A stretch of 64,000 bases of DNA from Chloroflexota bacterium. Lineage in GTDB: Bacteria; Chloroflexota; Limnocylindria; Limnocylindrales; CSP1-4. This document shows, piece by piece, positions 3,904-53,018 of the stretch; positions within the stretch are counted from its first letter, which is position 1; every line of letters begins with the position of its first letter. The stretch spans positions 1,346-65,345 of the forward strand of contig PLZO01000125.1 of the NCBI GenBank assembly GCA_003152165.1, read 5' to 3'. A model generated the notes under the pieces. That model searched no databases and was not told the DNA's origin. It worked only from the letters and a program-made list of their open reading frames with translations. The position numbers and the translations under genes were made by a program.

Positions 3904-3957
3904 CCGCTCGCTGGTATCATTCCGGCCGGTCCGGCGCTCGACGCCACCGGCCGACCT

Positions 3958-4034
3958 GCCGCATTCGTCTAGAGGCCCAGGACACCGCCCTCTCAAGGCG
4001 GAGATCACCGGTTCGAATCCGGTATGCGGTACCA
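3958..4034 (+). tRNA. tRNA-Glu (anticodon CTC)
   Basis: Hand-folded cloverleaf. Acceptor stem gccgcat/atgcggt (G-U at 1:72), D-arm tcgtctagaggcccaggaca, anticodon stem ccgcc/ggcgg with loop CT-CTC-AA, T-arm accgg-ttcgaat-ccggt, discriminator A, encoded CCA. Very similar to E. coli tRNA-Glu. Confidence 0.85.
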
Positions 4035-4076
4035 GTGACTCGGTCGCTGGGGCTGGGAGAATATCCAGGAGGCCCA

Positions 4077-36488: not shown

Positions 36489-36803
36489 TCCGGCGCTCCT
36501 ACGTGCTGTCAGCCCCGGTGATTCAAACGATCGGCTCAGCACCCGCTGGATGGTCGAGATCTGCCAGCCCGAGCGACCAGATACGGTCGGGATGCCTTCG
36601 TCGGCCAGACGCAGGACGATGTCGCGCAGGGTCAACCCTGCAGCGCGCCATTCCACGATCTGGCTCGTGATCTGAGCCGGGATCGAGGTTGGTCGGCCTA
36701 GCCGGACCCCGGCTGCCTTCCTAGCCGCAACGGCATCCTTTGTCTGTCCGCGATTCTTCTGCCAGATGCATATGCGAATGGGGGCTAAGCGGCAGCCGGG
36801 CGA
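36489..36803 (-). pseudogene. serine recombinase/resolvase C-terminal fragment (no start codon, catalytic domain missing)
   Basis: Hand translation of the minus strand gives ...IWQKNRGQTKDAVAARKAAGVRLGRPTSIPAQITSQIVEWRAAGLTLRDIVLRLADEGIPTVSGRSGWQISTIQRVLSRS*. The frame is bounded upstream by a stop at 36804-36806 and contains no ATG. Absent from the ORF track. Confidence 0.55.
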
Positions 36804-38064
36804 CTACCATCAGGTCGACCAAATCCCTCCCCCGGGGCTACTTGCGGTGACCGAGCCCTTTGCTTCTGGCGAGGACCAAGCGGAACGCGAAGGCGGATTC
36901 GCGGAGATCCGCCGTGTTGACCGAACGTACGCGTCCAAGGGTTTTGACTTGGCCGGGCATGTGGGAGTGCGTGCCCGCTTCATCCGCAAAGTCTTCGTCC
37001 CCGAATTCGACACTGAGGTCGATATCGACGGCGAAGGTACTCAGTGGCTCGTCTACACCTCCTCGAAAGGTCGTGTGCAGGTTCGACTGATCGTCTCCCG
37101 CGAACCGGGCCACGTCAGCGAAATCATCATCCAGCGCATCAATGCAACGGTTCATGGAGCGCGTGCGGACAACCTCGTCACGCTGACGGGCGAGGACGCC
37201 AGGCGGTTCATCGAGCTCATCAAGAACCTGGACTACATCCCTATCGAGGGCGCTGAAGGAATTCGGCTCGACGACGCCCTCGTCCGGGACCTTATGGCTT
37301 CTCCCGAGTCCGTATCGCAGATTTACGACAGAGACCCGGATGTATTTCGAAACCTCATCGCGGACGACGTGGCCGCGCGCGACGTCATCGCTCTATCACG
37401 AAGACGGAGCGAGGTGGAACGCTTCAAACGTCTGCTAGACGAGCGGGACTATTTTGACTCTGAGGTTGCGCTGACGCCACATAAGCGGCCCGAGGACGTA
37501 TGGCAAGGGTTCTTCGAGACGAACCCTTGGATACTCGGTACGGGCCTAAGTGGTCAGCTATTCACGTCCTGGGATGAGGACAAATTGGAACAGATCGTAG
37601 GCGGGGCGTCGATCGCGAATGTCGGCAAGCGGGCCGATGCGCTCATGCGCACGTCGGGTGTCGTGCGTTGGATGACCTTTGCAGAATTCAAGACCCACCT
37701 GACGCCTCTGCAGGCCCCCAAATACCGCCCAGGGACATGGCCACCTTCGGCCGAACTTGTGGGAGGCATCGCTCAGGCTCAGGCAACCGTCTGGCGCGCC
37801 ATGCAGGAAGTCGGCGCGGTCTTGCGCGGCACCGCTGCGGATGGATCAGAGATGACGGACGAGATGACATTCCTAACCCATCCGCGCTCGTACCTGGTTA
37901 TTGGCCAACTCGGAGAGCTTCTCGGGAAAGGTGGTGGACCGCACATGGATAAGATCCGGTCCTTCGAACTCTTCCGAAGGAGCGTCAGCGAACCTGAGAT
38001 CGTCACGTTCGACGAGCTGCTTGCCCGGGCCGAATGGGTCGTCGACACGGAACTAGGTGTCTAG
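36766..38064 (+). CDS. putative PD-(D/E)xK nuclease resembling the Shedu/DUF4263 anti-phage family
   Basis: C-terminal region ...FETNPWILGTGLSGQLF...GKRADALMRTSGVVRWMTFAEFK has an NPW(L/I)xG block and D-x16-E-x-K nuclease spacing that I recall from DUF4263. A/T-ending codon usage (gat, att, aaa, ggt) is atypical for this genome. The gene is flanked by recombinase remnants. The start may be internal (GTG near 36847). Confidence 0.5.
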   Translation: MHMRMGAKRQPGDYHQVDQIPPPGLLAVTEPFASGEDQAEREGGFAEIRRVDRTYASKGFDLAGHVGVRARFIRKVFVPEFDTEVDIDGEGTQWLVYTSSKGRVQVRLIVSREPGHVSEIIIQRINATVHGARADNLVTLTGEDARRFIELIKNLDYIPIEGAEGIRLDDALVRDLMASPESVSQIYDRDPDVFRNLIADDVAARDVIALSRRRSEVERFKRLLDERDYFDSEVALTPHKRPEDVWQGFFETNPWILGTGLSGQLFTSWDEDKLEQIVGGASIANVGKRADALMRTSGVVRWMTFAEFKTHLTPLQAPKYRPGTWPPSAELVGGIAQAQATVWRAMQEVGAVLRGTAADGSEMTDEMTFLTHPRSYLVIGQLGELLGKGGGPHMDKIRSFELFRRSVSEPEIVTFDELLARAEWVVDTELGV

Positions 38065-38370
38065 GGTGGCGACGGTCTGGCTGTTCGCTACCTCTCTGGC
38101 GAGCCGATTGCGTTCTCGTCTGACGTCGAGACGACATGGTTCACGAACGATGGCCGACCGTGGGCCTGGCGAACCGAGAACGGTTGGCTCTGGTCGTACG
38201 AGACGAGTCTAGCGATGGGATGGTTCTCCGGTAGGACCTTCTTCAGCGTGAACGGTGAGGCTCTCTACTTCAAGAACGAATAGCGTGCCCGTTGGCAGCG
38301 GAACGGGCCGATCAAGAACCTGCATGAGTTGCGTTCCCACCTCTCGCGTCACTTATCGCCCCCTTACGAG

Positions 38371-39336
38371 TCAGATTCCAATCGCGGCGGCTACATCGGG
38401 CCAAATCCGGTCAGCCTCGCCCTCCAGCCGCCTGAGATAGACGGTGGTCACGGCCAGCGAGCTGTGATCGAGAAACGAGCTAACGGCCTCGATCGACGCC
38501 CCAGCGTCCCGGCGGAGCTTCGCCGCCGTGTGCCGAAGTACGTGCAGCCCGGTCGGTGCCAACCCAGCCAGCCCCAGATACCGGCGGAACCTTGCGTAAA
38601 AAGACCCGCTTGTGATACCGAGGATGCTGACCGCCGCCTGCCAGAGCGACTCTTGCGGGTCCATCGTGGCCAAATCCTTGCCAGAGTCGGCCAGCGTCGC
38701 CCGGATCACCTCGTAGGCAGGTCGTGGAAGTTCACGCCGGCCGGTCTTGCCACCCTTGCCGCGATAGGAGTAGAGGGCCATCTCGCCTTCGAAGGTCAGG
38801 TCGGCGGCTCGTAGACCGAGCACCTCGGCTCGTCGTCGCCCTGTAAGGATCAAGACCAAGAGGATCGCCCGGTCGCGTCGACCTCGAACCGAGTCCGGAA
38901 TCACGGCCAGCAGTCGCCGAACTTCGTCGGCCGAATAGCCCCGAGCCGGTGCTTGAACCGTTCGAGGCCGCTCGACGGCATCGCACGGGTTCGAAACGAC
39001 GAGACCCATCCGGATCAAGAAGCGGTAGAACGAGCTCAGGCAGGCGATCCTGGCGCCGATGGTGGCTCCTGAGGGTGGCCGGCCCGATAGGCCGATTCCA
39101 TGGCCATAGGCCAGCACCTCGGCTGGCTTGACCCGGTCTGGGGTCGTGCCGGCAAAGAATGGCCAGAGCATCCGGCCGTAGCTCTCAACGGTCCTCTTCG
39201 AGCCCGACCGGTTGCCCTTCTCGACCAAGAACCCATACAGGGCCTGATCCCAGACCGATGGATCGCCGGATTGCAGGGCAGGGAGCGCCTGGTGGGGCAT
39301 CGTGGACCTCCTGAATTGGTGGATCACATCCATCAC
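38371..39336 (-). CDS. tyrosine-type recombinase/integrase (XerC/D-like)
   Basis: N-terminal SAM-like core-binding region and a C-terminal catalytic domain with R...HVLRHTAAK...TTVYLRR (R-H-R-Y pattern). Confidence 0.85.
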   Translation of the reverse strand: MMDVIHQFRRSTMPHQALPALQSGDPSVWDQALYGFLVEKGNRSGSKRTVESYGRMLWPFFAGTTPDRVKPAEVLAYGHGIGLSGRPPSGATIGARIACLSSFYRFLIRMGLVVSNPCDAVERPRTVQAPARGYSADEVRRLLAVIPDSVRGRRDRAILLVLILTGRRRAEVLGLRAADLTFEGEMALYSYRGKGGKTGRRELPRPAYEVIRATLADSGKDLATMDPQESLWQAAVSILGITSGSFYARFRRYLGLAGLAPTGLHVLRHTAAKLRRDAGASIEAVSSFLDHSSLAVTTVYLRRLEGEADRIWPDVAAAIGI

Positions 39337-39595
39337 TCAGGGGCCGGAAAATAGCAACACCATGACCGCATCGTGTGGTCGCTCAGGTGCGCCGGGCCGA
39401 ACGTTCAGAACTATTGATGCCCAACACGGGTCGCCCGATTGGGTGTCAGGCTCCCAGATTGCTACGGGCCTATCTATGCCTCGCTTGTAGGTCCGTGAGG
39501 CGGTCAGCTCGGATCTCAAGCCCTTGGGCAAGCCTCCGTGCCCATCGATGCCCCGGGTCATTTGATCGTGTTCCGGTGTGACAACTTCGATGACA

Positions 39596-40360
39596 TCAAA
39601 CCCCGATGGTTGGCCCGATGCCCGATCGACGACACCGATGGCTGAGTGCGCTGTACGCGGCGACATACCAGGCGCCCTGCTTCAAACCGTCCCAGAAGTA
39701 GGCGCTCAACCGGCGGTCGGCCAGCGCTTCGCCGCAGCGGGCACAGTGGTTGTGGTTCGCGCACCTGCAGTCGACCCGGATGACCCGCGGCCCGGGATAG
39801 CGGGTCCCGGGCTCGCCGATCTGCAGTAGATCGCCGGCGAGCTCGCCGCAGGTTCGGCACGCGGCGAGGCCCGGTCCGGAGCCGCCTGGATCTCCAGCCG
39901 CCAATCGGGCGAGGTCCTCAGGCGATGCGACCCGGCCACCCTCGAGATTGTCCCCGACGATGTAGCCGCTCCCACGATGGCGTTCGGCGAAGAGGCGCAG
40001 GTCGATCCGCCGTCCGGCCATTTCCGGCGTTTCCGGGACGTCCACCGGCAGGAGGATCCGCTCGATCACGGGCATCCCGCTCGGCACGATCCTTGACGCA
40101 GTCGGTGCCCCAGTCTCGTCACGATCGCGGTCGACGTCGACGTCGACGTAGAGGGCATCGGCCGGCCCCAGGACGAGACAAGTCGACATCTGGTTGGTGG
40201 ATGCCTGCCGCTCGAGGAGCTCGAGCAGACGGTCGCGCGACCAGTCGGCCGGGACGATCGCAAGATGACGGAGCGCGCACGCCCCGATCCGGGTGACCAG
40301 GTACGGGTAGCCGGTGAAGGCAGGCAGGCTGCCATAGCCAGCCCAGGCGTAGGTGAGCAT
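39596..40360 (-). CDS. hypothetical protein with C-terminal Cys-rich (zinc-binding-like) region
   Basis: CRTCGE...CRCANHNHCARCGE cluster. The 254-aa product has protein-like composition. Confidence 0.5.
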   Translation of the reverse strand: MLTYAWAGYGSLPAFTGYPYLVTRIGACALRHLAIVPADWSRDRLLELLERQASTNQMSTCLVLGPADALYVDVDVDRDRDETGAPTASRIVPSGMPVIERILLPVDVPETPEMAGRRIDLRLFAERHRGSGYIVGDNLEGGRVASPEDLARLAAGDPGGSGPGLAACRTCGELAGDLLQIGEPGTRYPGPRVIRVDCRCANHNHCARCGEALADRRLSAYFWDGLKQGAWYVAAYSALSHRCRRSGIGPTIGV

Positions 40361-40743
40361 TCCTCGACTCCTATCGCACCCGGCTGGGGCACCGTGGCGG
40401 CCTGAGGAATGCCGATCGGTTGCCGCGCCGTCCTCGAGCCGGGGCTCTCAGGCGCTCTTGATAGGTGGCATCACTGGGATGCCGAGGGGAGTGTAGGCCG
40501 CAGGCTGTGACAGCTCAGCAGTCACGGTGAGACGTTCGCGAGACGGACCGGCAGACGGGGGCGATGGTCGGTCCTCGTGGTGCGACGCCGAGGCGGCCAG
40601 GGTGGGGGCCGGATGCCTGACCTGCCCGCTGATGCAGGAGCTTGGGGGGTACGACGTGGCGGCACGTAGGCATTGCCTGCGCCCTCAGCGTGACTTACTG
40701 TCGCGGCTACTGCTTCCGATCCCCGAGCGCGAGGCTGCACAGA

Positions 40744-41046
40744 ATGCGACACCACTCGGATCCGAACTGGGAGCCCAGCCAACGCCGCTATGAACGTCGG
40801 GTTCGCTGGCACGGACTCGACATGGCAGCGATCTACGACACGTCGGTCCGTGGTGCGAAGGTAAGGTCGGAGTCCGACCGCCGTTGGGTAATCGAGTGCA
40901 ACGAGCACCACCAACGCACCTCCGCCAAGACCTACCACGATGCCTGCGCGAGCGCATTGGACCGCTCGTGGTGGTGTGACGGTGACGGTGACATGCACCC
41001 TGAAGACGCTTATTCATGGGAGGTGCGGGAGGCAGAAGGTCGCTAA
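40744..41046 (+). CDS. hypothetical protein
   Basis: W/H/D-rich protein-like product (MRHHSDPNWEPSQRRYERRVRWHG...). It competes with an antisense ORF (40522-40998), so strand and start are uncertain. Confidence 0.3.
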   Translation: MRHHSDPNWEPSQRRYERRVRWHGLDMAAIYDTSVRGAKVRSESDRRWVIECNEHHQRTSAKTYHDACASALDRSWWCDGDGDMHPEDAYSWEVREAEGR

Positions 41047-41752
41047 CGACGGTATCGTCGCCGCGCGAGTCTGGCCGACAGGTTTCGCGGCGGCGCCAGC
41101 CGCCGGGCCTAGCCAATTGGAACGTCAGGGCACGGCGGCGCATGCGCCTGATCGCTTGACTCCACTGGAACCGGACCCAATGACCTCTTGACCCGTGGCT
41201 GCCGCGCCTCAATCATCCGCGGGTGAGTGTTGTCATACGTCTTGTGCCCAGACCGTCGAACGACCGTCGATGTCACGGTCGATGGCATCGATCAAGCGTC
41301 GTGCGACCGTGTATGGGAGACCTCCGTCGAGGGCCTCGACGACGGACCTGAGCATCAGCGCTTCTGGGTCACCGTCGCTCGGGAGATCGCGCGAAGCGCG
41401 TAGACCTCGCGAGGGAAGCAGAAACCTTCGATCGGCTCCCTCAGTCCCGGTTCGCCCGAGGGCGCAGGCTCACCAGGAGCCGCGCCATGATCGTGCCATC
41501 GGCCCACTCGCGCCGGCATCGGCGACAGCGCCAATCAGGTGATGTCAACTCGACGGAGCAGCCCCCAAGCGCGATCTCGCCCCGTCGCGCCTTCTCATAC
41601 CCTTGGGCGACGGCAGCCCGTAGACGATCGGGAGCGGATCGCGGTCGCCGCACGTCGCACAGGTCGCGCCTATGCCGCGGCGATGCCTGACGTGTTGAAG
41701 TTACGGATCGCTGCCGGTCCCGGCGCATCTCCGGACGGCGGGTCATCCGGCC

Positions 41753-42073
41753 ATGAAGCAATACGGCGACGGTGTCGGCTACCGCAACCCGCACGAGTTC
41801 GAGGGCGACGACATCTCGCAGCAGTACCTTCCCGATGCCCTCGTGGAGCAGCGGTACTACGTGCCGCGCGACCAGGGCGACGAAGCGACGGTCAGCGCAC
41901 GGATGGCTGTATTAGATAGTGCTCGGCAAGCTGTTCGGGAAGCTGGTCGCCAGCGTCGGAAGCAGGATCGACCTGGGGTCGACCCGATGGCGTCGATGAG
42001 CGACGGGCTGAACGCCCATAACGAGAGTCGGAAGCGACTGGCCGAGACGCAGAAGCGCGACGCTGGAACTTGA
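41753..42073 (+). CDS. hypothetical protein
   Basis: The 106-aa product has diverse composition (MKQYGDGVGYRNPHEFEGDDISQQYL...). Confidence 0.45.
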   Translation: MKQYGDGVGYRNPHEFEGDDISQQYLPDALVEQRYYVPRDQGDEATVSARMAVLDSARQAVREAGRQRRKQDRPGVDPMASMSDGLNAHNESRKRLAETQKRDAGT

Positions 42074-42299
42074 GGGGGAGGGATCGTGGAGCCGGCGGCA
42101 AGAAGCGCGCCGAGTACCACAGCGTTGTCACCTGGTACACACGTATGGTTCGTCGTATTGATGGAACCCGGGAGACAGGACCCTTGACGGGGGTTATGCC
42201 TCGATGTGCCCGCGCTCGGTCGCGTCGAACGATTTTCCGCAGGCGCGGCCACAAGATGTAAGAGCGTGCACGTCCCGCCTTGCGGCCCAAGGGACCGGG

Positions 42300-43466
42300 T
42301 CAGCGATTGCCCTTCGCGCGGTTGTGCGTCACGCAGAGCATCTCGCAGTTCTCTTTCGACGTAGACCCACCGTTGCTCCACGCGGCGACATGGTCGGCGT
42401 CCATCTCGGCGAGCCCCCAGATCTTGACCTTGTTCGAGGCGTTGCCAACGGCACAGAGCGGGCAGTTCGAGACGCTCGTCGCTTGAGCTTTCGCCGTCTG
42501 CTCCTCGTAGACGACACGCTTGGTAACCTCGTCGAAGAGGCGCACTTGGAGGAGCTTGGTGTCTGTCTCGCCGCCGAGGATGAACTCGAAGATCCCCTTA
42601 CGATCTTTCACGAACGGGTCGGCATAGAGCGCACGGACTCGTTCGGCCACCTTGTCCGCGTCATAGGGGTGTCGGTGGTAGGTCTCGTAGAGGCGGCCCC
42701 ACTCCAGTCCGCGCATCTCCTTCTCGACGCTCGTGAAGACGGTCGCAACCCAGTCGATGACGGCGTTGAAGTAGGCCTTGACCTCGCTGATGTCGCGGTC
42801 GTTGCGATGGCGGCTCATGTAATCAGCAACGTTGACCTTGCTCACCCACTCGAGAGCCCGCTCCCAGAAGTCTTGGCGGTTCGCCACGCCCCGGACGTAG
42901 GCGCTCCACTTCTGGACATTCGCGTTCTGGCTGTTGCTGAACTCGTGCCTGCCGGCGGTGACGAAGGGTCCCGAGTAAACGGCGTTTAGCAGCTCTTGAT
43001 CGTTTAGCGGCACTCCGGCGGTGTTGATCGTGCGGAACCACTCCTTGATCTCACTCTCGGTGCCACTGCACTCGTAGACGAGGATCTCGGAGTCGAGAAT
43101 CTTCTGCTGCTTATCGGCGGCTAGACCGCCAAAGTACTGTTCCATCCCGAGCTCGTCCTTGACGGCGAACTTGCCCGTGACGTAGCGCCCGAAGCTCGTA
43201 ATGCGCTGCTGCCCATCTAGTACCTCGTGCCTGTCGTCGCCGACGTGGTTGAAATAGATCAAGCCGAGCGGATATCCAGCCAGAAGCGACTTGACGACGG
43301 CAATCTCCAAGCGGCCGCCCTTCTCCGCGTAGATGTAGTTGCGCTGGTACTCGGGTTGGATGGTCAGCCTGCCCGCGAGCCCGAACAGGCCGCGCCCCTC
43401 CAGCGCGTTATAGACGAACCCATCACAGATCTGGCGAACGGTGTATTGCTTAAGCTCTGTCTTCAT
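42300..43466 (-). CDS. DUF262 (ParB/Srx-like, DGQQR motif) fused to HNH endonuclease; GmrSD/SspE-like nuclease
   Basis: N-terminal [11 protein letters not shown]...[10 protein letters not shown] is the DUF262 hallmark. C-terminal CPLC...[30 protein letters not shown] is an HNH domain with Zn cysteines. The start overlaps the upstream MTase stop (ATGA). Confidence 0.85.
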
Positions 43467-44668
43467 CCGACGGGCCTCCGATGCCCGATAAAGACTCTCT
43501 GGTAGGCCGACTGTATGACTCGCCCATCCTTGTTGATGAAGTAGTTCTTCTTCCCGTCATTTCCGGCCAGGTTGGCGTTCTCGTTCGTCTTTCCACCAGA
43601 GGAGCCAGTCTTGCTGCCGTCTTGACGCACTTCCCAGTAGTCGTCGTATTTGACAGTATCGGGAACGGCATCATGACATCCGCGCTGCGTAGCTCCCAAG
43701 ACCTCGAACTGCTCGGGTGAGTACTTATCGAGGAAACTGATTGGGACGCCCATCACGCCTTCGTAGTCGCTCGGGATCGCGTCGGTGAATGGGACCTCGA
43801 TGGCGTCGTAGTTGTCGTATTTCATGTAGCCCGCTTTGCCCCTGATCTCCTTGTGCCTGCTGAACCGCAGGTTGTCGCTCATGGTCATAAGTGGGAGGGG
43901 TTGGTGGCGACGTCCGTGGTCGAGGTTCGTGAACCAGCAGGAGTTGCCAAGCCTCGTGTAATCGCCAACGTACCCGAGGCGAGCGGCCTTTTCTTTATCC
44001 GCAGCGGCGACCACCGCGCCCGGTGGAACGCCGAAGACCATGTCACTGCCGTTCCCGGTCGCACCGAGCCACATACGATCGCTCTTGATCAGCGGGAACA
44101 CCTCTTTATAGGTGATGGCGTTCATGTTGCCGATGATCACGAATTTCTTGTGAGCTTTGACCGTCCACGCCAGGAAATCGCGGAACATAGAGAACGGCGG
44201 GTTGGTGATGATGACGTCCGCCTCGTCACGGAGCCTTGTCACCTCTTCACTTAGGAAGTCGCCGTCGCCCGCGAGGTACTCCCACTCGAGGTCATTGACA
44301 TTCATCCGGCCGTCACCGGACACGTCTCGGCTGAGGGTGAAGGTCTTCCCGTTGACCGTAGTCTTTTCAGGATCGAACAGCGGGCTACTTGATTCCCAGA
44401 GCGTCGGCTGCCTGTGGTACATCGCTGCGCTGGGCGCGTAGCTCGTGCTGATGAGCTTCGCGAGTCCGAGGCGCTCGAAATTCTGTGCGAAGTACTTCGT
44501 GAAGTTGCTCCACTCGGGGTCGTCGCATGGTAGGAGCACCGCCTTACCGCGGAACACGTCCGGGTCGAACTCGAGATAGGCGTTCATTTCCTTCTCGATG
44601 TCCGCGTATTGCGTGTAGAACTCGTCGTTCTTCGCGTTCTTGGCGTTCCAGAGGTTGTTGTTCGGCAT
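43463..44668 (-). CDS. N6-adenine DNA methyltransferase, EcoRI-methylase family
   Basis: [60 protein letters not shown] matches the EcoRI-methylase family N-terminus. VIITNPPFS is the NPPF catalytic motif. The ORF-track N-terminal extension was rejected. Confidence 0.85.
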
Positions 44669-44870
44669 CAGTCGGCCCTCGCTTCGTAGTGACTTGGTGC
44701 AGGGCGAAGAGGCGTAGTCGCACGCGACCAACGCTCGCAGGGGCGCGTCGGCCCAGGCGCTCTGAGAGGACCTTCACGATGTCGCCGTAGTAGAGGGTAT
44801 TGAGATCGTTCGCCATACACAGAGCATACGAGGCCGCGTCGCCCCTGACTGGACTGGTCGGAAGGGAGGC

Positions 44871-45539
44871 TCAGGGCGGCCCAGTCTTGGCCGCGAGCGC
44901 AGCCTTCCTCGCGGCCGTCCGAGCCGGCTCGGTGAAATAGAAGCCGAACAAGGTGGCGAGTGTGTCGAGGGTCCACTCGGCCTCTCCGGGCTCCACCTCA
45001 AGGTAGTCGCCGGTCGCGGTCGACTTGTTCGGGTGCGCGGCCATGTTCCCGATGACGCGCAGTTCGTGGAGCGACTCAGTGCAGTAGCCCGGTAACCCGG
45101 CGTTGGTCAGTGCCCACTCGATCTCCTTGAAGAGGTCCGACTTCGGGGCCTTCGCCTGCTCGCCGAGCAGGTGCTGGAGGCAGCGGCGGGACAGGGCGGC
45201 GCTCGCGCGCGGCGAGTCCTGGAGGATCAGCGCGGCCTCCGAGTAGAGCCCGCGGTACGGCTCGGGGACCTCGGGCGGGAGCGGGGGCCGCGACGAGACG
45301 CGGGGCAGGAGCACGAATTCGTTCAGCATGAGCTGGGTGGCGGTGCCAGGCTCCGGGCCGTCTTCGTACCCGAGGTCGGAGTGGGTCAGGATGACGCCCG
45401 CGCACTTCGGACAGGCGACTGCCTCGACCTGATGGTTCTCGCCGCCCTGGTCGCTGTAGTACATCCGGTTCCCGCTGCCGTGAATGCCTCGTGTCGTCGG
45501 GACCGGGTGCATCTCGATGGAGCAGAACGGGCAAATCAT
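44871..45539 (-). CDS. zinc-ribbon + DUF4145-like domain protein
   Basis: N-terminal CPFC...CPKC zinc ribbon. The C-terminal AALSRRCLQHLLGE...LHELRVIGNMAAHPN resembles DUF4145. Confidence 0.65.
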   Translation of the reverse strand: MICPFCSIEMHPVPTTRGIHGSGNRMYYSDQGGENHQVEAVACPKCAGVILTHSDLGYEDGPEPGTATQLMLNEFVLLPRVSSRPPLPPEVPEPYRGLYSEAALILQDSPRASAALSRRCLQHLLGEQAKAPKSDLFKEIEWALTNAGLPGYCTESLHELRVIGNMAAHPNKSTATGDYLEVEPGEAEWTLDTLATLFGFYFTEPARTAARKAALAAKTGPP

Positions 45540-45732
45540 GGCGTCAGTCTAGGCGGGCCGCGACGCCCCGGAGTGCGCTGATCGGACGCCGAGGAGATCC
45601 CGTCACATGAACCGAGGCCCGACGGAGTTTGGTCCATCGAGCCTCGTGGATGGTGGCGTTACACCTTCGTGTTGGGTTCAACCGTGACGAGTGCGGCGAT
45701 GTGTGCCTGAGCGGGGACGTGGGTGGACGGGC

Positions 45733-45763
45733 GCGGGTGATGGGTGCGGGTGATGGGTGCGGG
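45733..45763. repeat. tandem GCGGGTGATGGGT x2.4 in intergenic region
   Basis: Read directly. It shares the core GCGGGTG(A/T)T with the 9-bp arrays inside the primase gene (19888-20036). Confidence 0.7.
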
Positions 45764-45979
45764 CTTCCCGGCGGCGGGCTTGGGGGCCTTCGTCGCGGCG
45801 GGTGAGGTGCCCGCGGAATTCGGGGCCCAGAGTCTCCACGATTCTCAGTACGGTTCAGTGCCGATTTGGCCTGCTGTCGATATCTCCTCGTGGCGCTCGC
45901 CGCTGCCAGCCGGGTCCGGGCCAGCCAGGCGCTTCGAATGACGTGAAACCAGCCTTCGGCTGCCAAGCTTCGAGCCAGG

Positions 45980-46567
45980 TCATCGTCGTGCGTCAATCCT
46001 GAAGGTAGCGGTTAGGGTGGGGCCGTCGCGCTCGGCTGAACCGACGTAGCCGTGCCCCTCGAAGACGGTCGCATCGTCTTCGTAGTCCTCATCCCCGTCC
46101 GGACCGCGCTTGTAGGTGCGGACCACCTCGGACGCGGTCCATCCACGCGTTGCTCGCGACAACTTGGCTTCGAGGCGGGCGAAATAGGCCCGCCCTTCGT
46201 CGGCTTCCTCGGACCCGTCGTCGGCAACATCGCGTCCACAGAAGCGACAGATCAGCGCCTCCCGCTTGATCAACTCTGCGCAATAGGGGCACTTGACGGT
46301 GTCCGACTCGAATACGACTGCCGTACCGGTCATGTAGAGGACGTGGTATCCCTTGCCGAGCCCGACGGGGCCATGACCATAGGTCGTGTGGATAACGCCG
46401 TTTGCCCCCATCTTGAGCGCTGTCTCGCGCAGCTTCGAGTTGCCTGTCTCGATTGACGGCGTTGCCGCCCAGATGGCGCGGCCACTGACCCACGCTTTGA
46501 TCGGGCCCAGGACCCGATAGGGCCTATCAGGTTCGCCGGCGTGGACTTCGATGTCTTCTACCCGCAC
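45980..46567 (-). CDS. YbjQ/UPF0145-like domain fused to zinc ribbon and acidic tail
   Basis: LRETALKMGANGVIHTTYGH...GYHVLYMTGTAVVF fits the YbjQ pattern. CPYCAELIKREALICRFCG is a zinc ribbon. Confidence 0.55.
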   Translation of the reverse strand: MRVEDIEVHAGEPDRPYRVLGPIKAWVSGRAIWAATPSIETGNSKLRETALKMGANGVIHTTYGHGPVGLGKGYHVLYMTGTAVVFESDTVKCPYCAELIKREALICRFCGRDVADDGSEEADEGRAYFARLEAKLSRATRGWTASEVVRTYKRGPDGDEDYEDDATVFEGHGYVGSAERDGPTLTATFRIDARR

Positions 46568-46664
46568 CGTGACCTCCGCTTCGGGTACTCACTGTTCGGA
46601 TTGTGCGCCGGCGACGTGGTGGGACGCCGTGGGCAAAGTGGCCGGGCCGACGGGTCAAAGTTGT

Positions 46665-47051
46665 CTAGCGGAGCACAGCTCCGAGGTCGTGGAGGTACTG
46701 GCACCTAAGCCCGAGCCCGAACTGTGTGTCAGTGAAGAACCACACGGCGATGCCAAGGAAGATGACGACCAATATGGCAGTCGCCAGTGGACTCGAACCC
46801 GAGCTTCGCGTCCCGTCGGTCGGTCTGAGTTCAGGCTGACGGCGTACAGAAGGCTCTGGGAATGGAGCACCGCAATGGGCGCAGAACGCAGATGCCGAGT
46901 CGCGAGGCTGCCCACATGCCGCGCAGAACTTGACCCAATCTGCGACAGGCGGTGGGCCCCGAACCTCGACTGGGCGAATGTCCTCTCCGCAATGATTGCT
47001 GCGCACAGCCACTTTCGATCCGCCGCCACGACCTTGCCGCAGTGAGGACAC
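46665..47051 (-). CDS. zinc-ribbon domain membrane protein
   Basis: FCAACGQP...FCAHCGAP zinc ribbon followed by TM helix LATAILVVIFLGIAVWFF. A competing ORF exists in another frame (46655-47074). Confidence 0.45.
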   Translation of the reverse strand: MSSLRQGRGGGSKVAVRSNHCGEDIRPVEVRGPPPVADWVKFCAACGQPRDSASAFCAHCGAPFPEPSVRRQPELRPTDGTRSSGSSPLATAILVVIFLGIAVWFFTDTQFGLGLRCQYLHDLGAVLR

Positions 47052-47276
47052 GTTCGGCTCACGTTAGGTGCCATCCAGGCCTGCCTCCCGACGCAGACGC
47101 TAGCACGGCTGATCCATAAGCAACACGGCTGTCAACAGGGCTGTTGGGTTGACCGTCAAGAACGCTCACGCTCGCGCTCGCGCTCCGTAGGAGCTCAGTC
47201 TTGGAGTTCCGCACACGGGCCTCGCGATACCCCGCCGGGAGGTCGCGCCCTGAGCGCAGCTCGGTCTGGTCCGGCG

Positions 47277-48101
47277 CTACTTGAAGAACGGTCGGAGGCG
47301 CTCGAATACGCTGAGTCGGATCAGGCCGTAGTTCGCTTGCAGTACGCCCGGGAGGGTCCGCGCCAGCGTGGTCGTTCCCTCTTCATCCAAGGTTACTTGG
47401 AAGGTGAATACGGCCTGGAAATCTGTCTTCTGGCCTGCCGCGAGCGTTATGCCGCCCACGACCATGCCCTCTTCGATGGGAGTGCCGGTAACAATCCAGG
47501 TATCGGTCGGGCGCTCGTCGAAATAGAAGGCCGTGCCAAGGGGCAACATCCCGACCACGACCGGCGATCGATGCTTGTCCCGATTCCAACGTCGGTCCAA
47601 AAGGTTTAGCCAGTGGGCGCCGCGCGTCGCCTTCGGACTGTGGTAAGGCTGTGCCGCGTCGATGATGTCGAGGGCGCCCTGCGGTATGCCCGCAAAACGA
47701 TCCAGGGCGATTTTCCTGAAGCTAGCCTCGGTTTGGCACACGGGGAAAGCCAGCCGCCAATACGGCGTGCGATAATCGCTCACGAGCGCCCACGCGATGT
47801 TGTCGAGCGTGGCGCGAAGTTCGTGGATACACTCCCCGACGATGAAACCGAGGTCCGCTGGGATTGGGCGGCGCACATGAGCGCGGTACAGGTATGTATG
47901 TCCGTCGCCCTGCGGCTCGGGAACCACGTCGTACAAGCCGCCGTCCGCCTTCAGCCCTTGGACTTCCGTCTCTACTTGCTCGATACGACGACGCGCCCAC
48001 TCGAGCCGGGCTTCGATGCGCTCGCTTGGCCTTTCATGAGTGCGCCCTCCATGCATGACCGCGGACCCGTGGCCGGTGGACGGTCGTGCTTCATCGCCCA
48101 T
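47277..48101 (-). CDS. hypothetical protein (274 aa)
   Basis: Protein-like composition. No motif I can assign with confidence (a possible R-x5-H at RWNRDKH). Confidence 0.5.
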   Translation of the reverse strand: MGDEARPSTGHGSAVMHGGRTHERPSERIEARLEWARRRIEQVETEVQGLKADGGLYDVVPEPQGDGHTYLYRAHVRRPIPADLGFIVGECIHELRATLDNIAWALVSDYRTPYWRLAFPVCQTEASFRKIALDRFAGIPQGALDIIDAAQPYHSPKATRGAHWLNLLDRRWNRDKHRSPVVVGMLPLGTAFYFDERPTDTWIVTGTPIEEGMVVGGITLAAGQKTDFQAVFTFQVTLDEEGTTTLARTLPGVLQANYGLIRLSVFERLRPFFK

Positions 48102-48244
48102 GATCAGAGCGCAAAGCTGTTCTCAATTGCCTCGTTGCGGCGTGAATTGCGCATTTCGCTGAAATCAATCCAACTCAAGAACGCGCGACGCGGTCGATCT
48201 GTGCGGTCTGCGGGGGGTCGGAGTCGAATCTCGCCTACCACCTG

Positions 48245-48583
48245 TCATCCAATCGCCACAGGGCGGCGCTGGTGAAGCCGGACGTTAGCCCCAGCTAATT
48301 CTTTAGTGTACGGCCGGATCTCGGCCGCCGGAAGAGGCTGGTCGGGCCATCGACCAGGCTCGACCAGATACGTCAGGTCGACGGGTTCCATCCCCAAGGC
48401 CCGACGCTTCTGAACCAGGATTCTGTGGGTGGCATCCCGGAGCGCGTCGTCGGTAGCTTCCGGCCCCTCAATCGAGATCCATTCTTCCGGCCCGGCGTTC
48501 TGTCGCTTGGCCAGCAGGCTTGATCCGGCAAGGGCGAGCAGAGTCCGAGCATCGGCTGGAGCCAGGCGTCGAAGGTCTGTCAC
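48245..48583 (-). CDS. hypothetical protein (112 aa)
   Basis: 4-nt overlap with the upstream terminase-like gene suggests co-translation. Confidence 0.4.
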   Translation of the reverse strand: MTDLRRLAPADARTLLALAGSSLLAKRQNAGPEEWISIEGPEATDDALRDATHRILVQKRRALGMEPVDLTYLVEPGRWPDQPLPAAEIRPYTKELAGANVRLHQRRPVAIG

Positions 48584-49002
48584 AGGCCGCTCAGTTCGAG
48601 AATCCGCTCGGCCTCCGCGATCAAGCCGTCAGCAGACAGGCCGAGGTCACGAGCAATCCTCTGAGCTTCGATCTTCATGTCGAGTCTGATATCAACCCGC
48701 TCCCGATAGACCTCGGGGCGATGGGCTTTGAGCAGGAAGATCAGGAGGGTGTCGCTCTGCGACAAAGCCCGCGCCCGTGCCTGCGCCTCCAAAACGTCAA
48801 TCCCATCCTGCTCGGCCTGTGCCCAGAGTCCGGCAAATTTCGAATCTCGTTGCCGGCGCCGATAGGCGGTATCCCGATCGATGCCGGCGGCATCTGCTGA
48901 AAGCCGAACGTTGCAGGTCGAGCGAAATACCTCAAGGAAGCGCCCAGCCCAGTCGACCTTGAGCACCCTCGTAGGTGCCGATTCTGCCGAGCGCTCAGTC
49001 AT
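48580..49002 (-). CDS. phage terminase small-subunit-like HTH protein
   Basis: AGIDRDTAYRRRQRDSKFAGLWAQAEQDGIDVLEA...LLIFLLKAHRPEVYRER resembles the phage small terminase family (recalled pattern). Confidence 0.5.
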   Translation of the reverse strand: MTERSAESAPTRVLKVDWAGRFLEVFRSTCNVRLSADAAGIDRDTAYRRRQRDSKFAGLWAQAEQDGIDVLEAQARARALSQSDTLLIFLLKAHRPEVYRERVDIRLDMKIEAQRIARDLGLSADGLIAEAERILELSGL

Positions 49003-50359
49003 CTCGAACCGCCTTGCGACCGGTGAACGCCTCCCAGCGGGCGATCACGATCTGGGCGTACTTCGGGTCAATCTCCATCCCGTAGCACCGCCGGCCGAGG
49101 CGCTCGGCAGCGATCAGTGTTGTCCCGCTACCCAAGAACGGATCAAAGACTGCCTCGCCGGCTCGGAGGTGATTGCGGATCGGCGCCTCGGAAAGGACGA
49201 CCGGTTTCTGCGCGGGATGGTCGAATTTCTCCTCCTCCGACCCGCCCATGATCATCTTCGGGCTCGGCGCCCGCCAGACCGTGGCCTGATTGCGCTCGCC
49301 GAGGAACGGGACCTTCGATCCGGGCTTCCTGACGACCCAGCATGGTTCGTGGGCCCAGTGGTACCAAGATCGACCCATCGCGAAGAGGCCCTTGTCCCAG
49401 ATGATCTGGCTCACGATGCTGAAGCCAATCCGCTCCAACCCTGCTGCCACCTCTCCTGCATGAACGCCGGCGTGCCAGACGTACCCGACGGTCAGACTCG
49501 GGACTAATTCGAATGCCTCTGACCAATCGATCCTTGTGTCGCCGCTCAGGGTGGTGTTCTGATGGCCAACGGTACGCACGTGTGGCGCCACGTTGGCCCC
49601 TGTGGCGTTGTTATTGTCGGTTTGGCCATCGATCCGCATATACGGTCGTTCGGCCGGACCGAGGGCGTTGTAGACGCCATCCCGCCACGTTGGGTCGAGG
49701 CTTACTCCGTACGGTGGGTCGGTAGATAACAGGGTCGGTTCGGCCCCATCGAGTAGCCGGGCGACGTCGTCCGGGTTGATCGCATCACCGCAGAGCAGGC
49801 GATGCTCGCCAAGAAGCCAAAGGTCGCCAGGCCGGACGTAGATCTCGGCCTCATCGGCCTCGGGTTGGAGGTCATCTGGGTCGGTTAATCCAAGCTGGCG
49901 GATGTGGTTCTTGTCGGCCAGATCATCGAGCAATTCCTGCAGGCCATCGTCGCTCGCGGTCAGGTCCCGGAGCAGCGCGGCCAGCCTGGAGGCGTCCGCC
50001 GTCGCGAGAGCGCCAATGGGATCAAGGCTGGCCAGTACGAGGCGCTCGTCCTCCTCGGACAGATCGACGTAGGTTACGGGGATCGTTGGTTCGCCCCGGG
50101 ATACGGCTAGCTCGACCCGCAAGTGGCCATCGACGAGCCGCCCGGTGGTCCGATTTACTGTGGCTGGGGCCACCCACCCAACCTGGCCGAGGGCGGCAGC
50201 CAGCGATTTCGCCTGCCCGCTTGGATGGGTGCGCCAATTCAATGGGTTGCCGATCAGCTCGGCCGGGTCGACATCGCCGTGGCCCGTAATCCTATTGATC
50301 CAGGGCGTGCTCAGACCCTTCGACTTCTTCTTGGGCGTGAGGAGGGTCTGCTCGGTCAT
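48995..50359 (-). CDS. ParB-like nuclease domain fused to DNA methyltransferase (N6/N4, motif IV before motif I)
   Basis: N-terminal LVDGHLRVELAV is a ParB/Srx motif. It is followed by LSTDPPYGV (motif IV) and a C-terminal FDPFLGSGTT (motif I). This arrangement is common in phage genomes. Confidence 0.85.
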   Translation of the reverse strand: MTEQTLLTPKKKSKGLSTPWINRITGHGDVDPAELIGNPLNWRTHPSGQAKSLAAALGQVGWVAPATVNRTTGRLVDGHLRVELAVSRGEPTIPVTYVDLSEEDERLVLASLDPIGALATADASRLAALLRDLTASDDGLQELLDDLADKNHIRQLGLTDPDDLQPEADEAEIYVRPGDLWLLGEHRLLCGDAINPDDVARLLDGAEPTLLSTDPPYGVSLDPTWRDGVYNALGPAERPYMRIDGQTDNNNATGANVAPHVRTVGHQNTTLSGDTRIDWSEAFELVPSLTVGYVWHAGVHAGEVAAGLERIGFSIVSQIIWDKGLFAMGRSWYHWAHEPCWVVRKPGSKVPFLGERNQATVWRAPSPKMIMGGSEEEKFDHPAQKPVVLSEAPIRNHLRAGEAVFDPFLGSGTTLIAAERLGRRCYGMEIDPKYAQIVIARWEAFTGRKAVRDD

Positions 50360-50445
50360 GCATCAAAGCTAGCTGGGCAGGGGCGCCGGATCTATCCCTG
50401 ATCCGTCTGCATCCCGTTGCTCGAACGACAAGGTCTGCCAAACGA

Positions 50446-50682
50446 TCACGCGTTCGAGCATTCCCAACCGTCGTCCTCCCAATGGACGAGGAGTAGCATC
50501 GGTCGACGGACGGTGGCAATCCGGAGGGCTTTGAACCCGGGCTCGTCGAGGTTGACCCCCTTGAAGTCGAGCTGGCAAGCATCACCCAAGGTTGGGCAAC
50601 TCCCCTCGTCCCGCGTTCCTACCATCCAGGCGATCGTGGTCGCGAGGACTACCGAGACGAGGCCGAACTCTTCGAGGAACAT
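50446..50682 (-). CDS. hypothetical small protein
   Basis: Protein-like 78 aa, positioned upstream of the ParB-MTase on the same strand. Confidence 0.3.
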   Translation of the reverse strand: MFLEEFGLVSVVLATTIAWMVGTRDEGSCPTLGDACQLDFKGVNLDEPGFKALRIATVRRPMLLLVHWEDDGWECSNA

Positions 50683-50691
50683 GGCTACGTC

Positions 50692-51300
50692 GTGTCGGTC
50701 GTGCGAGAAGCTACAGCACTGACGGCGACCTATCGGAAGAACCCCGCCAGAGACGTCGATGGTCCGCTAGACACTTTCGTCCGGATCTACGAGGACAAAC
50801 AGCAATCCGACGCGGTTGCCTTGTTCGAGGAGGACGCCGCGGACCTCGACCTCGACGGCTATTCGCCGACCGACCAACGCTGGGCTTCACCAAAACCGGG
50901 TGAGCTGCTCGGCAGGCTACTGGTGACGTACACGAAGGAGGCTCCAGTCCCGATCATCGTTTGGAGCTACCCGGGTCGGACGCAAGTTGACGCGGGCGAG
51001 GTCTACGCGAAACACGCCCTGGAATTAGCTGTTCAAGGCTACGTCCCGATCTCCCAGAGTTGGGCCGAGGGTCGACCGGGCGCCGGAAGGGTCCTGATGA
51101 TCGGGGTATTTGCATCATCGATCCGGCCGAAGGGCTTCCTGACGGTGACGTACCGATTGGAGCCCGCGAAAAAGGCGCCGACAGCATTAGCTCCAGATCC
51201 AATTGACCAGATCCAGCGTCTCGGCAAGCTCCGCGACAGCGGTGTGCTGACGGTCCAAGAGTTCGAGGCCAAGAAGGCCGAGCTCCTCGCCCGGATGTAG
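50692..51300 (+). CDS. hypothetical protein with C-terminal SHOCT-like domain
   Basis: The C-terminus IDQIQRLGKLRDSGVLTVQEFEAKKAELLARM matches the SHOCT pattern. Confidence 0.55.
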   Translation: MSVVREATALTATYRKNPARDVDGPLDTFVRIYEDKQQSDAVALFEEDAADLDLDGYSPTDQRWASPKPGELLGRLLVTYTKEAPVPIIVWSYPGRTQVDAGEVYAKHALELAVQGYVPISQSWAEGRPGAGRVLMIGVFASSIRPKGFLTVTYRLEPAKKAPTALAPDPIDQIQRLGKLRDSGVLTVQEFEAKKAELLARM

Positions 51301-51972: not shown

Positions 51973-53013
51973 CTGCCCTAGCTGTAGCCCCCACACACGT
52001 TGTTGACAGATGAGAGTCCCGCTGCAGGGTTTGGGGTGTCGAGCACCAAGCCAAGCAGGAGACTCTCGTGGCACATCCTAGGGCCCGTCTGACCGTCTTC
52101 GGTCGTCAGCTCCTCATCGCCCGGGTGGCGGCGGGCTGGCCAGCAGCGCACGTCGCCGAACAGTTCGGGATCAGCCGGGCGACGGCATACAAGTGGGTCC
52201 GCCGGCATCGAGCGGAAGGCGACCGCGGGCTCGAGGACCGCTCATCCCGACCGCGTCGTTCACCGCGTCGGCTGAATCCGGCCGCCGAGGCCGAGATCCT
52301 GGCCGCCCGAGCAACCTGGCGGTACGGACCCGACCGGCTCGGGCCGCTGCTGGGCCGACCGCCCTCGACCGTCCATCGGGTGCTCGTGAGGCATGGCTTG
52401 AGCCGGCTGGGCGATGCCGACAAGGTGACGACCGCACCGATCCGCTATGTCGCCTGCCATCCCGGGGCGCTGCTTCACCAGGACCACAAGAAGCTCGGAC
52501 GGATCCCTGACGGCGGCGGCTGGCGGGCGCTCGGTCGCGGTGGCGGCACGAAGCGAGGGCATGGCCGGATCGGCTACGACCATCTCGAAGTCGTCATCGA
52601 CGACACCAGCCGCTACGCGGTCGTCGTCCCGGTCCCCGACGAGTCCGGCGCCTCGGCGGTGGCAGCCCTCGAGACCGCGGCCCTCGAGTTCGCTCGCCTC
52701 GGCATCCGGATCGAGCGGGTCCTGACCGACAACGGCAGTGCCTATCGGTCCTCGACGTACCGGACGGCCGTCGATGGGCTTGGCGCCAGGCACAAGCGGA
52801 CCAGGCCGTTTCGACCACAGACGAACGGCAAGGCCGAGCGGCTCATCCAGACCCTGCTGCGCGAGTGGGCGTACGGCCGCCCATACCGCACGAACGACGA
52901 GCGTGTGACCGCCCTACCCCTGTTCGTCGACTTCTACAATCAGCGACGACCCCACACCGCGCTCGGCGGTCAATCACCCCTCGATGCTGTCAGCAACGTC
53001 CCTGGAGACCACA
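51973..53013 (+). mobile_element. IS481-family insertion sequence
   Basis: Terminal inverted repeats read directly. Left: tgtagcccccacacacgttgttgacagatgag. Right (reverse complement): tgtggtctccagggacgttgctgacagcatcgag. Flanking CCTAGC / GCTAGC fits NCTAGN target duplication. Confidence 0.75.
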
Positions 53014-53018
53014 GCTAG
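52068..53018 (+). CDS. IS481-family DDE transposase
   Basis: N-terminal HTH, DDE core, and the C-terminal RPQTNGKAERLIQTL...RRPHTALGGQSP signature. Confidence 0.85.
   Translation: MAHPRARLTVFGRQLLIARVAAGWPAAHVAEQFGISRATAYKWVRRHRAEGDRGLEDRSSRPRRSPRRLNPAAEAEILAARATWRYGPDRLGPLLGRPPSTVHRVLVRHGLSRLGDADKVTTAPIRYVACHPGALLHQDHKKLGRIPDGGGWRALGRGGGTKRGHGRIGYDHLEVVIDDTSRYAVVVPVPDESGASAVAALETAALEFARLGIRIERVLTDNGSAYRSSTYRTAVDGLGARHKRTRPFRPQTNGKAERLIQTLLREWAYGRPYRTNDERVTALPLFVDFYNQRRPHTALGGQSPLDAVSNVPGDHS

Follow-up and report, generated by a model that had tools for sequence, protein, structure and literature searches.

A published system that matches the gene pair reported here in its described make-up is BanLI, a restriction-modification (R-M) system of Bifidobacterium animalis subsp. 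lactis in which an integrase gene is followed by banLI.M and banLI.R (O'Connell Motherway et al. 2014; PMC3990576). The authors of that work aligned M.BanLI (41.7 kDa) to M.EcoRI, and SMRT (single-molecule real-time) sequencing and heterologous expression established its target as RTC(6mA)GG (6mA, N6-methyladenine), an asymmetric site that is methylated on one strand only; R.BanLI has a mass of 43.5 kDa. In E. coli the cloned pair lowered plating of P1vir approximately 10-fold (efficiency of plating ~0.1), pre-methylation of plasmid DNA raised transformation 1.8-fold, and a second methyltransferase was presumed by the authors to have been lost (PMC3990576). According to a 2026 report (PMC13091528), the REBASE Type II restriction endonuclease for RTCAGG in the same species is a gene that carries the annotation 'DUF262 domain-containing protein'. 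Two other DUF262 nucleases are relevant. In BrxU the residues of the DGQQR motif position the gamma-phosphate of the nucleotide, which has to be bound and hydrolysed before DNA can be cleaved (PMC8565348); SspE is described as a DUF262 nuclease whose partner is a self-marking module and whose target is unmarked DNA. In this work we describe an EcoRI-family adenine methyltransferase gene and an adjoining DUF262-HNH nuclease gene located at positions 42300-44668 of a 64,000-nucleotide stretch of DNA from a Chloroflexota bacterium (contig PLZO01000125.1, positions 1,346 to 65,345, of a metagenome assembly, ENA ERZ27254241; the whole stretch is referred to as the window). The pair is another copy of a catalogued but poorly characterised, structurally unsolved and biochemically unstudied R-M module.

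The methyltransferase (M) gene is the first of the operon (43463-44668, minus strand; 401 aa, 45.3 kDa) and is followed by the nuclease (R) gene, which starts with ATG (42300-43466, minus strand; 388 aa, 44.0 kDa). Stop and start codons overlap in the tetranucleotide ATGA at 43463-43466 (minus strand; 'tcat' on the plus strand), with the nuclease ATG at 43466-43464 and the methyltransferase TGA at 43465-43463 as read from the sequence. A GGAGG that probably serves as ribosome-binding site of the nuclease gene (43475-43479, minus strand; plus strand 'cctcc') lies 8 nt before its ATG, within the 3'-terminal part of the methyltransferase gene. Likewise, a Shine-Dalgarno-like GAGGG of presumed function is present 7 nt before the methyltransferase ATG (44676-44680, minus strand; plus strand 'ccctc'). 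The listed open reading frame (ORF) of the methyltransferase extends to a TTG at 44731; the ATG form beginning at 44668 is supported as the start because homologues align from its residue 1. Scans for promoters and terminators were uninformative in this high-GC DNA (no promoters; terminator-like sites at background rate). An earlier annotation made from the letters of the window alone (the sequence-only reading) had taken the two genes for one operon, which is borne out both by the ATGA overlap and by the M-then-R order in all 79 assessable loci elsewhere (see below); its three domain calls (PF13651, PF03235 and PF01844) were all confirmed by Pfam.

The methyltransferase matched PF13651 (EcoRI_methylase) with an E-value of 1.2e-117 over profile positions 1-342 of 345, and the PADLOC model MTase_II PDLC03297 'Type II methyltransferase' with an E-value of 2.1e-84. 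Its catalytic motif IV, NPPF, is formed by residues 156-159 (44192-44203, minus strand; the reverse complement aacccgccgttc translates to NPPF). The protein is predicted to be an intact EcoRI-family adenine methyltransferase.

The nuclease consists of an N-terminal DUF262 domain of the ParB/Srx-like NTPase (nucleoside triphosphatase) type, a helical middle domain and a C-terminal, zinc-bound HNH domain. The DUF262 (GmrSD_N) domain comprises residues 35-164 (42975-43364, minus strand; PF03235, E 1.3e-18) and includes DGQQR at residues 84-88 (43203-43217, minus strand, from the translation), the motif for the nucleotide gamma-phosphate and hydrolysis in DUF262 enzymes. The HNH His-Me finger (42312-42464, minus strand; PF01844, E 4.9e-06 for residues 353-388) follows the zinc finger pattern CxxC...DH...N...CxxH-N between residues 335 and 382, with zinc ligands and neighbouring motif positions at C335, C338, D358-H359, N373, C378, H381 and N382. 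Conservation was scored on a 48-sequence alignment with 31-88% identity. Invariant residues in this alignment were Q41, R42, Y46, D84, G85, Q87, R88, C335, H359 and N373; C338, D358, C378 and N382 were nearly so. As every family-invariant residue is retained in the window nuclease, the enzyme is predicted to be intact, with all conserved DUF262 motifs and a zinc-bound HNH active site, and by analogy with BrxU its cleavage activity may be gated by NTP.

An AlphaFold model of the nuclease computed with the diverse 48-sequence alignment reached a pLDDT (predicted local distance difference test) of 92.3 and a pTM (predicted template modelling score) of 0.75; an earlier run on a shallow alignment of 70-88% identical sequences (pLDDT 52.8) was discarded. 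In fold searches the N-terminal half matched best to BrxU (score 8.8), followed by SspE (7.7) and DndI (6.5), with ParB CTPases and sulfiredoxin below DndI, and the C-terminal domain matched the Cas9 HNH domain (6.9) and McrA (6.5). A profile search of PDB sequences returned isolated HNH domains (Gme HNH 4h9d, E 4.7e-06) and a weak match to the N-terminal part of BrxU (E 1.2e-03) only, and single-sequence searches of solved structures gave no match for either protein of the pair. The DUF1524 domain was not matched in the nuclease at E <= 0.01 (Pfam); similarly, neither a superfamily 2 (SF2) helicase-type ATPase nor a PD-(D/E)XK domain was found by Pfam, PDB-sequence profile and fold searches, which detected DUF262 and HNH only. 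Of the GmrSD/SspE/BrxU architecture that the sequence-only reading had proposed, the N-terminal DUF262 domain with DGQQR stands; the C-terminus, however, is a classical zinc HNH (PF01844, Cas9/McrA-like) instead of DUF1524, and the protein has 388 aa compared to 560-580 aa of the solved relatives. Since DUF1524 is absent, the length is only about two thirds, and a methyltransferase partner is always present, the nuclease is not regarded as a member of the GmrSD family.

The same reading could not place the pair in any catalogue of defence systems, a view that had to be abandoned: PADLOC models match both proteins, and BanLI is published with the same described make-up. The nuclease matched REase_II PDLC03418 'Type II restriction enzyme' with an E-value of 3.6e-82 and 274.5 bits over its full length (residues 10-387 versus profile positions 10-371 of 372). 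Ten diverse family representatives were also matched full length by this model (240-448 bits), the top score being that of a distant subclade. NCBIfam contains no model matching either protein; in RefSeq the methyltransferase is named 'adenine-specific methyltransferase EcoRI family protein' and the nuclease 'DUF262 domain-containing protein'. Literature searches on DUF262, HNH and Type II, on DGQQR and on the EcoRI family turned up no paper describing this architecture. The nuclease family is large, with more than 8000 clusters at 90% identity (E 1e-5) and, at 50% identity, 392 cluster representatives with E < 1e-30. No Bifidobacterium names occurred among the clusters of the ten family representatives, and a search seeded with a truncated nuclease gene from a Bifidobacterium choerinum plasmid likewise yielded no Bifidobacterium name.

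Co-occurrence of the two genes was determined in a nuclease-selected set of 80 loci with 63-73% identity, obtained by scanning one genome per species, plus two plasmid loci. In three of these 82 loci the contig breaks off no more than 170 bases from the start of the nuclease gene, which left 79 assessable loci. Hosts include Armatimonadota, Bacteroidota, Chloroflexota, Actinomycetota, many Patescibacteria, Bacillota, Spirochaetota, Planctomycetota and Pseudomonadota, among others. In all 79 of them, the methyltransferase gene was located upstream of the nuclease gene and shared its strand. The two genes overlapped by 4 bp in 17 loci, by 1 bp in five and by an apparently longer stretch in two; gaps of 0-50 bp were present in 37, of 51-400 bp in four and of more than 400 bp in 14. 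Full-length nuclease homologues on plasmids, down to 35% identity, likewise overlap or abut an EcoRI-family methyltransferase gene (for example in Gordonia, Ruania, Aeromonas, Ligilactobacillus, Variovorax, Sulfitobacter, Macrococcoides, Chryseobacterium and Thiomicrorhabdus), and two methyltransferase homologues that were looked up directly were both followed immediately by the nuclease gene. When viral contigs were selected by the methyltransferase, the nuclease was present in 43 of 58 assessable loci and the methyltransferase was an orphan in the remaining 15. Conversely, no intact full-length nuclease without an adjoining methyltransferase gene was encountered among the 79 genome loci and the plasmid cases examined. 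This asymmetry is expected if the nuclease is dangerous in the absence of the methyltransferase. The pairing is thus not due to chance, and the two genes travel across phyla as a unit. No third conserved gene was detected, the largest cluster of flanking genes being represented in five of the 79 loci, and BREX, Dnd or Ssp genes were not conserved near the pair. The proposal that BanLI has lost a second methyltransferase is contradicted by these data, because a single methyltransferase is present in all 79 loci and no additional gene is conserved, which shows that the two-gene arrangement is native.

Some loci deviate from the common arrangement. In three viral contigs (L139, L140 and L141), which represent a distant subclade of ~37% identity, the order is reversed, with the nuclease gene (2874-3917) upstream of the methyltransferase gene (4001-5059). 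The inserts of more than 400 bp (14 of 79 loci) carry unrelated cargo that includes (i) Phd and PIN toxin-antitoxin genes; (ii) RhuM-family genes; (iii) T5orf172; (iv) a D12 Dam-like methyltransferase; (v) an AAA_21/AbiEii-like ATPase; (vi) Bro-N; and (vii) DUF3800. Examples are L003 (5060-5970), L010 (4910-5998), L024 (2728-5988) and L067 (3458-4966), and further cargo was noted in L004, L005, L007, L008, L023, L033 and L077. The M-R junction looks like a hotspot for the embedding of other defence or mobile genes. In L008, a 74-aa ORF right after the methyltransferase gene (4822-5046) opens with the N-terminus of the nuclease (METTLKQYTVKEVCEGFVYNEIEGKGLFGL...) and is followed by the Phd/PIN insert and then by the full nuclease gene; it resembles a target duplication that resulted from the insertion. 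Finally, the only nuclease genes that lacked a methyltransferase gene were truncated remnants on two plasmids, an N-terminal one of 210 aa in Aerococcus (L153, 3001-3654) and a C-terminal one of 272 aa in Bifidobacterium choerinum (L154, 2380-3198). Resistance genes (optrA, cmx) adjoin both remnants, which have arisen by decay of the module on resistance plasmids.

Variability of the two proteins was compared in 74 complete M+R pairs. The nucleases have 381-394 aa (mostly 386-389) and a mean pairwise identity of 70.6%, and no gap-rich or cassette-like variable region was apparent in them. The methyltransferases have 346-416 aa and a conserved core that is 69% identical, interrupted by two hypervariable cassettes. 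Cassette V2 (residues ~198-245; 43934-44077, minus strand) falls into 17 classes (>=50% identity) of 27-55 aa between conserved anchors. The C-terminal cassette, C (residues ~322-401; 43466-43705, minus strand), falls into 32 classes of 31-89 aa and lies between the anchor E(I/V)(L/I)G and a YxR(I/L)(F/L)(I/V) strand at the terminus. There were 64 V2/C combinations in the 74 systems, and 13 of the 17 V2 classes were paired with more than one C class. The partners of a single cluster of 14 nucleases (>=85% identity) spanned six V2 and nine C classes. In one comparison, L038 versus L047, the nucleases were 95% identical and the methyltransferase cores 73%, as opposed to 7% each for V2 and C. Nuclease identity was 72.2% within and 70.5% between cassette classes. 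The V2 and C cassettes reassort independently of the nuclease. Because they are, along with residues 81-130, the only non-core parts of this monomeric methyltransferase, they are likely to be parts of its target-recognition domain. Residues 81-130 co-segregate with the clade of the nuclease. The further idea that the nuclease evolves more slowly than the methyltransferase was rejected; it is partly a sampling artefact, as the loci had been chosen by nuclease similarity, and the relation was mixed in the methyltransferase-selected viral set. The cassette pattern is independent of that bias. A recognition site could not be derived from palindrome avoidance in ~1 Mb of carrier loci: 4-mers and 6-mers showed only the generic depletion of CTAG, GATC and GGCC, and AATT-type words gave no avoidance signal. 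This test is unsuited if the sites are asymmetric, as is that of BanLI.

Taken together, the pair very probably constitutes an R-M module of some kind. We consider it about an even chance that it is a self-contained, BanLI-like two-gene module based on N6-methyladenine (m6A) in which recognition is coupled to the methylase. In such a module the methyltransferase would mark host DNA at a short motif, and the nuclease would bind or hydrolyse NTP in its DUF262 domain and then cut DNA that does not carry the mark. The target specificity of cleavage would come from the methyltransferase or be coupled to it, probably by way of an M-R complex. This logic would resemble that of Type III systems, in which Mod specifies the site and Res combines NTPase and nuclease; the nuclease would not be an independent reader of the site. 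Methylase-supplied specificity is proposed because unrelated V2 and C cassettes occur in methyltransferases whose partner nucleases are nearly identical. Should these cassettes form the recognition domain, specificity would shift frequently against a constant nuclease, which can occur only where cleavage specificity derives from, or is linked to, the methyltransferase, a situation known from Type I and Type III systems. One-strand methylation of an asymmetric site by M.BanLI would fit methylase-coupled reading as well. That the nuclease restricts DNA lacking the methylase mark had been the first of two possibilities raised by the sequence-only reading and is supported by the presence of a methyltransferase gene beside every full-length nuclease gene. 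The paradox seen there, of a modification-dependent nuclease co-expressed with a modifying enzyme, dissolves when DUF262 is viewed as a ParB/Srx-type NTPase switch and not itself as a reader of modified bases, for which SspE provides a precedent.

More tentatively, and with somewhat less than an even chance, the family may represent an unrecognised class of NTP-dependent R-M systems with Type III-like logic but non-homologous parts, distinct from canonical Type II. Its 'Mod' would be an EcoRI-family methyltransferase with two freely reassorting recognition cassettes that set specificity, and its 'Res' a compact, specificity-free protein made up of a ParB/Srx-type NTPase switch or clamp and an HNH domain. 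Like BanLI, it might rely on single-strand methylation of asymmetric sites.

Several points weigh against a BanLI-like module with methylase-coupled recognition. In both REBASE and PADLOC the family carries the simple label Type II, and V2 and C could be fast-evolving surface loops. M and R are more than 50 bp apart in 18 of the 79 loci (in 14 of these, insertions of unrelated genes exceed 400 bp), and tight translational coupling is therefore dispensable. On the Chryseobacterium taklimakanense plasmid NZ_CP034172 (L151), the methyltransferase gene beside an intact nuclease gene appears frameshifted (2068-2903); its alignment falls into two different reading frames, and the plasmid gene table does not list it. 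The gene may be a pseudogene with a frameshift, or a sequencing error may be involved; if real, the frameshift would be awkward for a strict toxicity model. Restriction by BanLI is weak, and the system was interpreted by its authors as Type IIS in crippled form (PMC3990576). Finally, the assignment of BanLI to the same family is suggested by matching descriptions and sizes and not by an alignment.

The best surviving alternative is a canonical Type II/IIS system, in which the nuclease itself would read the short site of the methyltransferase and cut it when unmethylated, DUF262 would be a DNA-binding or accessory domain, and the variable segments of the methyltransferase would leave specificity unchanged. 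The names of the PADLOC models (Type II restriction enzyme, Type II methyltransferase) and the REBASE entry of the BanLI-type R gene as a Type II restriction endonuclease with the site RTCAGG agree with this explanation. Separate M and R genes with a stop/start overlap are typical of such systems, and HNH Type II enzymes exist, such as KpnI, Hpy99I and PacI. Yet nucleases that are 86-95% identical pair with V2 and C cassettes unrelated in both sequence and length, and the 64 combinations in 74 systems would, if the cassettes form the recognition domain, be lethal for partners that recognise their sites independently. Nuclease divergence is nearly independent of V2/C class (72.2% identity within and 70.5% between classes), which would argue against a specificity of the nuclease's own that co-varies with the recognition domain. 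Strict conservation of the NTPase motifs (Q41-R42 and DGQQR) is unexpected for an enzyme requiring only Mg2+, and the single BanLI methyltransferase marks one strand of an asymmetric site while the two-gene form is native in 79 of 79 loci. On balance, we regard the canonical explanation as possible but doubtful.

Alternatively, the pair might be a largely selfish addiction module or a decaying one, acting by post-segregational killing or equipped with a weak or inactive nuclease, and contributing little to phage defence. The modest effects of BanLI (only ~10-fold against P1vir and 1.8-fold on transformation), the occurrence of the module on plasmids of 8-10 kb and in islands with a GC content below that of their flanks, the truncated remnants L153 and L154, and the one locus that may combine a frameshifted methyltransferase gene with an intact nuclease gene could be explained in this way. 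We consider it improbable given that the window nuclease keeps every family-invariant residue, that ~71% conservation of the nuclease across phyla without indels points to strong purifying selection on an active protein, and that the window pair has defence genes such as Shedu and a PD-T7-4-like gene as neighbours; moreover, addiction and defence are not mutually exclusive. That the nuclease is a modification-dependent Type IV enzyme directed against a foreign modification, with a separate role of the methyltransferase in anti-restriction or orphan regulation, was the second possibility raised at the outset and would agree with the modification dependence of the characterised DUF262 nucleases GmrSD and BrxU, with BrxU as best structural match and with the orphan methyltransferase copies in viral contigs, but it is unsupported given the strict co-occurrence and very unlikely, since an intact full-length nuclease was never found without an adjoining methyltransferase gene (79 of 79 genome loci, and every plasmid case examined, down to 35% identity), the defining DUF1524 domain is absent, Type IV enzymes need no cognate methyltransferase, and an m6A-dependent nuclease beside an m6A methyltransferase gene would be suicidal.

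The pair resides in a region of lower GC content (58-65% versus 68-70% outside; GC profile of 37000-51000). A tyrosine integrase gene (38371-39336, minus strand; Pfam) and an IS481-type transposase gene (52068-53018, plus strand; Pfam) bracket this region, and no tRNA gene was found at its edges. These features are consistent with a horizontally acquired island. A homologue of Shedu SduA is encoded 4 kb from the pair (36766-38064, plus strand; PADLOC PDLC00394, E 1.6e-118; Pfam SduA_C, E 2e-25), which indicates that the island holds several defence systems. The earlier description of the surroundings as a mobile island is correct. The neighbouring gene upstream of the pair (44871-45539, minus strand) had been annotated as zinc-ribbon/DUF4145; DUF4145 is present (Pfam, E 8e-16; PADLOC PD-T7-4, E 2.2e-16), whereas the N-terminal zinc-ribbon match is weak and below threshold. 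The gene was considered as a third component and rejected, because none of the 82 comparison loci carries it; its position is incidental, and it may be an independent single-gene defence candidate. Further upstream are ORFs of 195 aa (45980-46567, minus strand; sub-threshold zinc-ribbon and YbjQ-like matches) and 274 aa (47277-48101, minus strand; no Pfam or PADLOC match), followed by a gene for a protein of 454 aa with a C-terminal N6_N4 DNA methylase domain (48995-50359, minus strand; Pfam, E 3e-20). The latter protein has a long N-terminal extension, no adjoining nuclease partner was identified, and it is apparently a second, orphan DNA methyltransferase of the island.

The window thus contains an ordinary further copy of a catalogued R-M module in a defence island, and the family is among the commoner two-gene R-M modules in metagenomes. 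What is new is the pattern seen at the family level, an NTPase-HNH nuclease without a variable region of its own combined with a cassette-shuffled methyltransferase. The label 'plain Type II' is called into question by the strictly conserved NTPase domain, by a nuclease that looks free of specificity and by the shuffled cassettes of the methyltransferase. If the methyltransferase dictates cleavage specificity, the module would be a compact (~790 aa in total), naturally reprogrammable restriction system and a new example of ParB-type NTPase switches in immunity. The puzzling single-strand methylation of BanLI would be explained, and restriction barriers in many lineages known only from metagenome-assembled genomes, including Patescibacteria, could be read from methyltransferase cassettes.

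Compared with known systems, the pair shares with EcoRI the methyltransferase family (PF13651, full length, E 1.2e-117). R.EcoRI, by contrast, is a PD-(D/E)XK enzyme that reads the palindrome GAATTC on its own and is unrelated to the window nuclease. HNH Type II enzymes such as KpnI, Hpy99I and PacI have the same His-Me finger fold with zinc ligands, have no NTPase domain and possess their own recognition elements. GmrSD and BrxU resemble the nuclease in the N-terminal DUF262 domain with DGQQR; they differ in a C-terminal DUF1524 domain (DHxxP) and a length of ~580-700 aa, as opposed to a PF01844 HNH with zinc site in 388 aa, and they are modification-dependent and lack a cognate methyltransferase, whereas the nuclease described here is always linked to one. 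SspE and DndI also combine a DUF262 NTPase-nuclease with a module for self-marking of DNA and act on unmarked invading DNA. Their mark, however, is a phosphorothioate produced by a multi-gene pathway and not m6A produced by a single methyltransferase, and they have a DUF1524 nuclease domain and 560-594 aa. BanLI is similar in the methyltransferase-then-R order, the location beside an integrase gene, a GC content below the genome average and the combination of an EcoRI-like methylase with an R subunit annotated as DUF262; the sizes are 41.7 and 43.5 kDa in BanLI versus 45.3 and 44.0 kDa in the window, and the recognition site RTCAGG is established for BanLI only. Type III systems (EcoP15I, EcoP1I) are alike in logic, with mod preceding res, one methyltransferase, an R subunit that combines NTPase and nuclease, a conserved R together with varying segments of the methyltransferase that are putative recognition elements here and, via BanLI, an asymmetric site methylated on one strand. 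The parts themselves are not homologous: Type III Res combines an SF2 helicase-like ATPase and a PD-(D/E)XK nuclease, and its Mod is a beta-class methyltransferase, whereas in the window R is a ParB/Srx-type DUF262 domain joined to an HNH domain within 388 aa, and M belongs to the EcoRI family.

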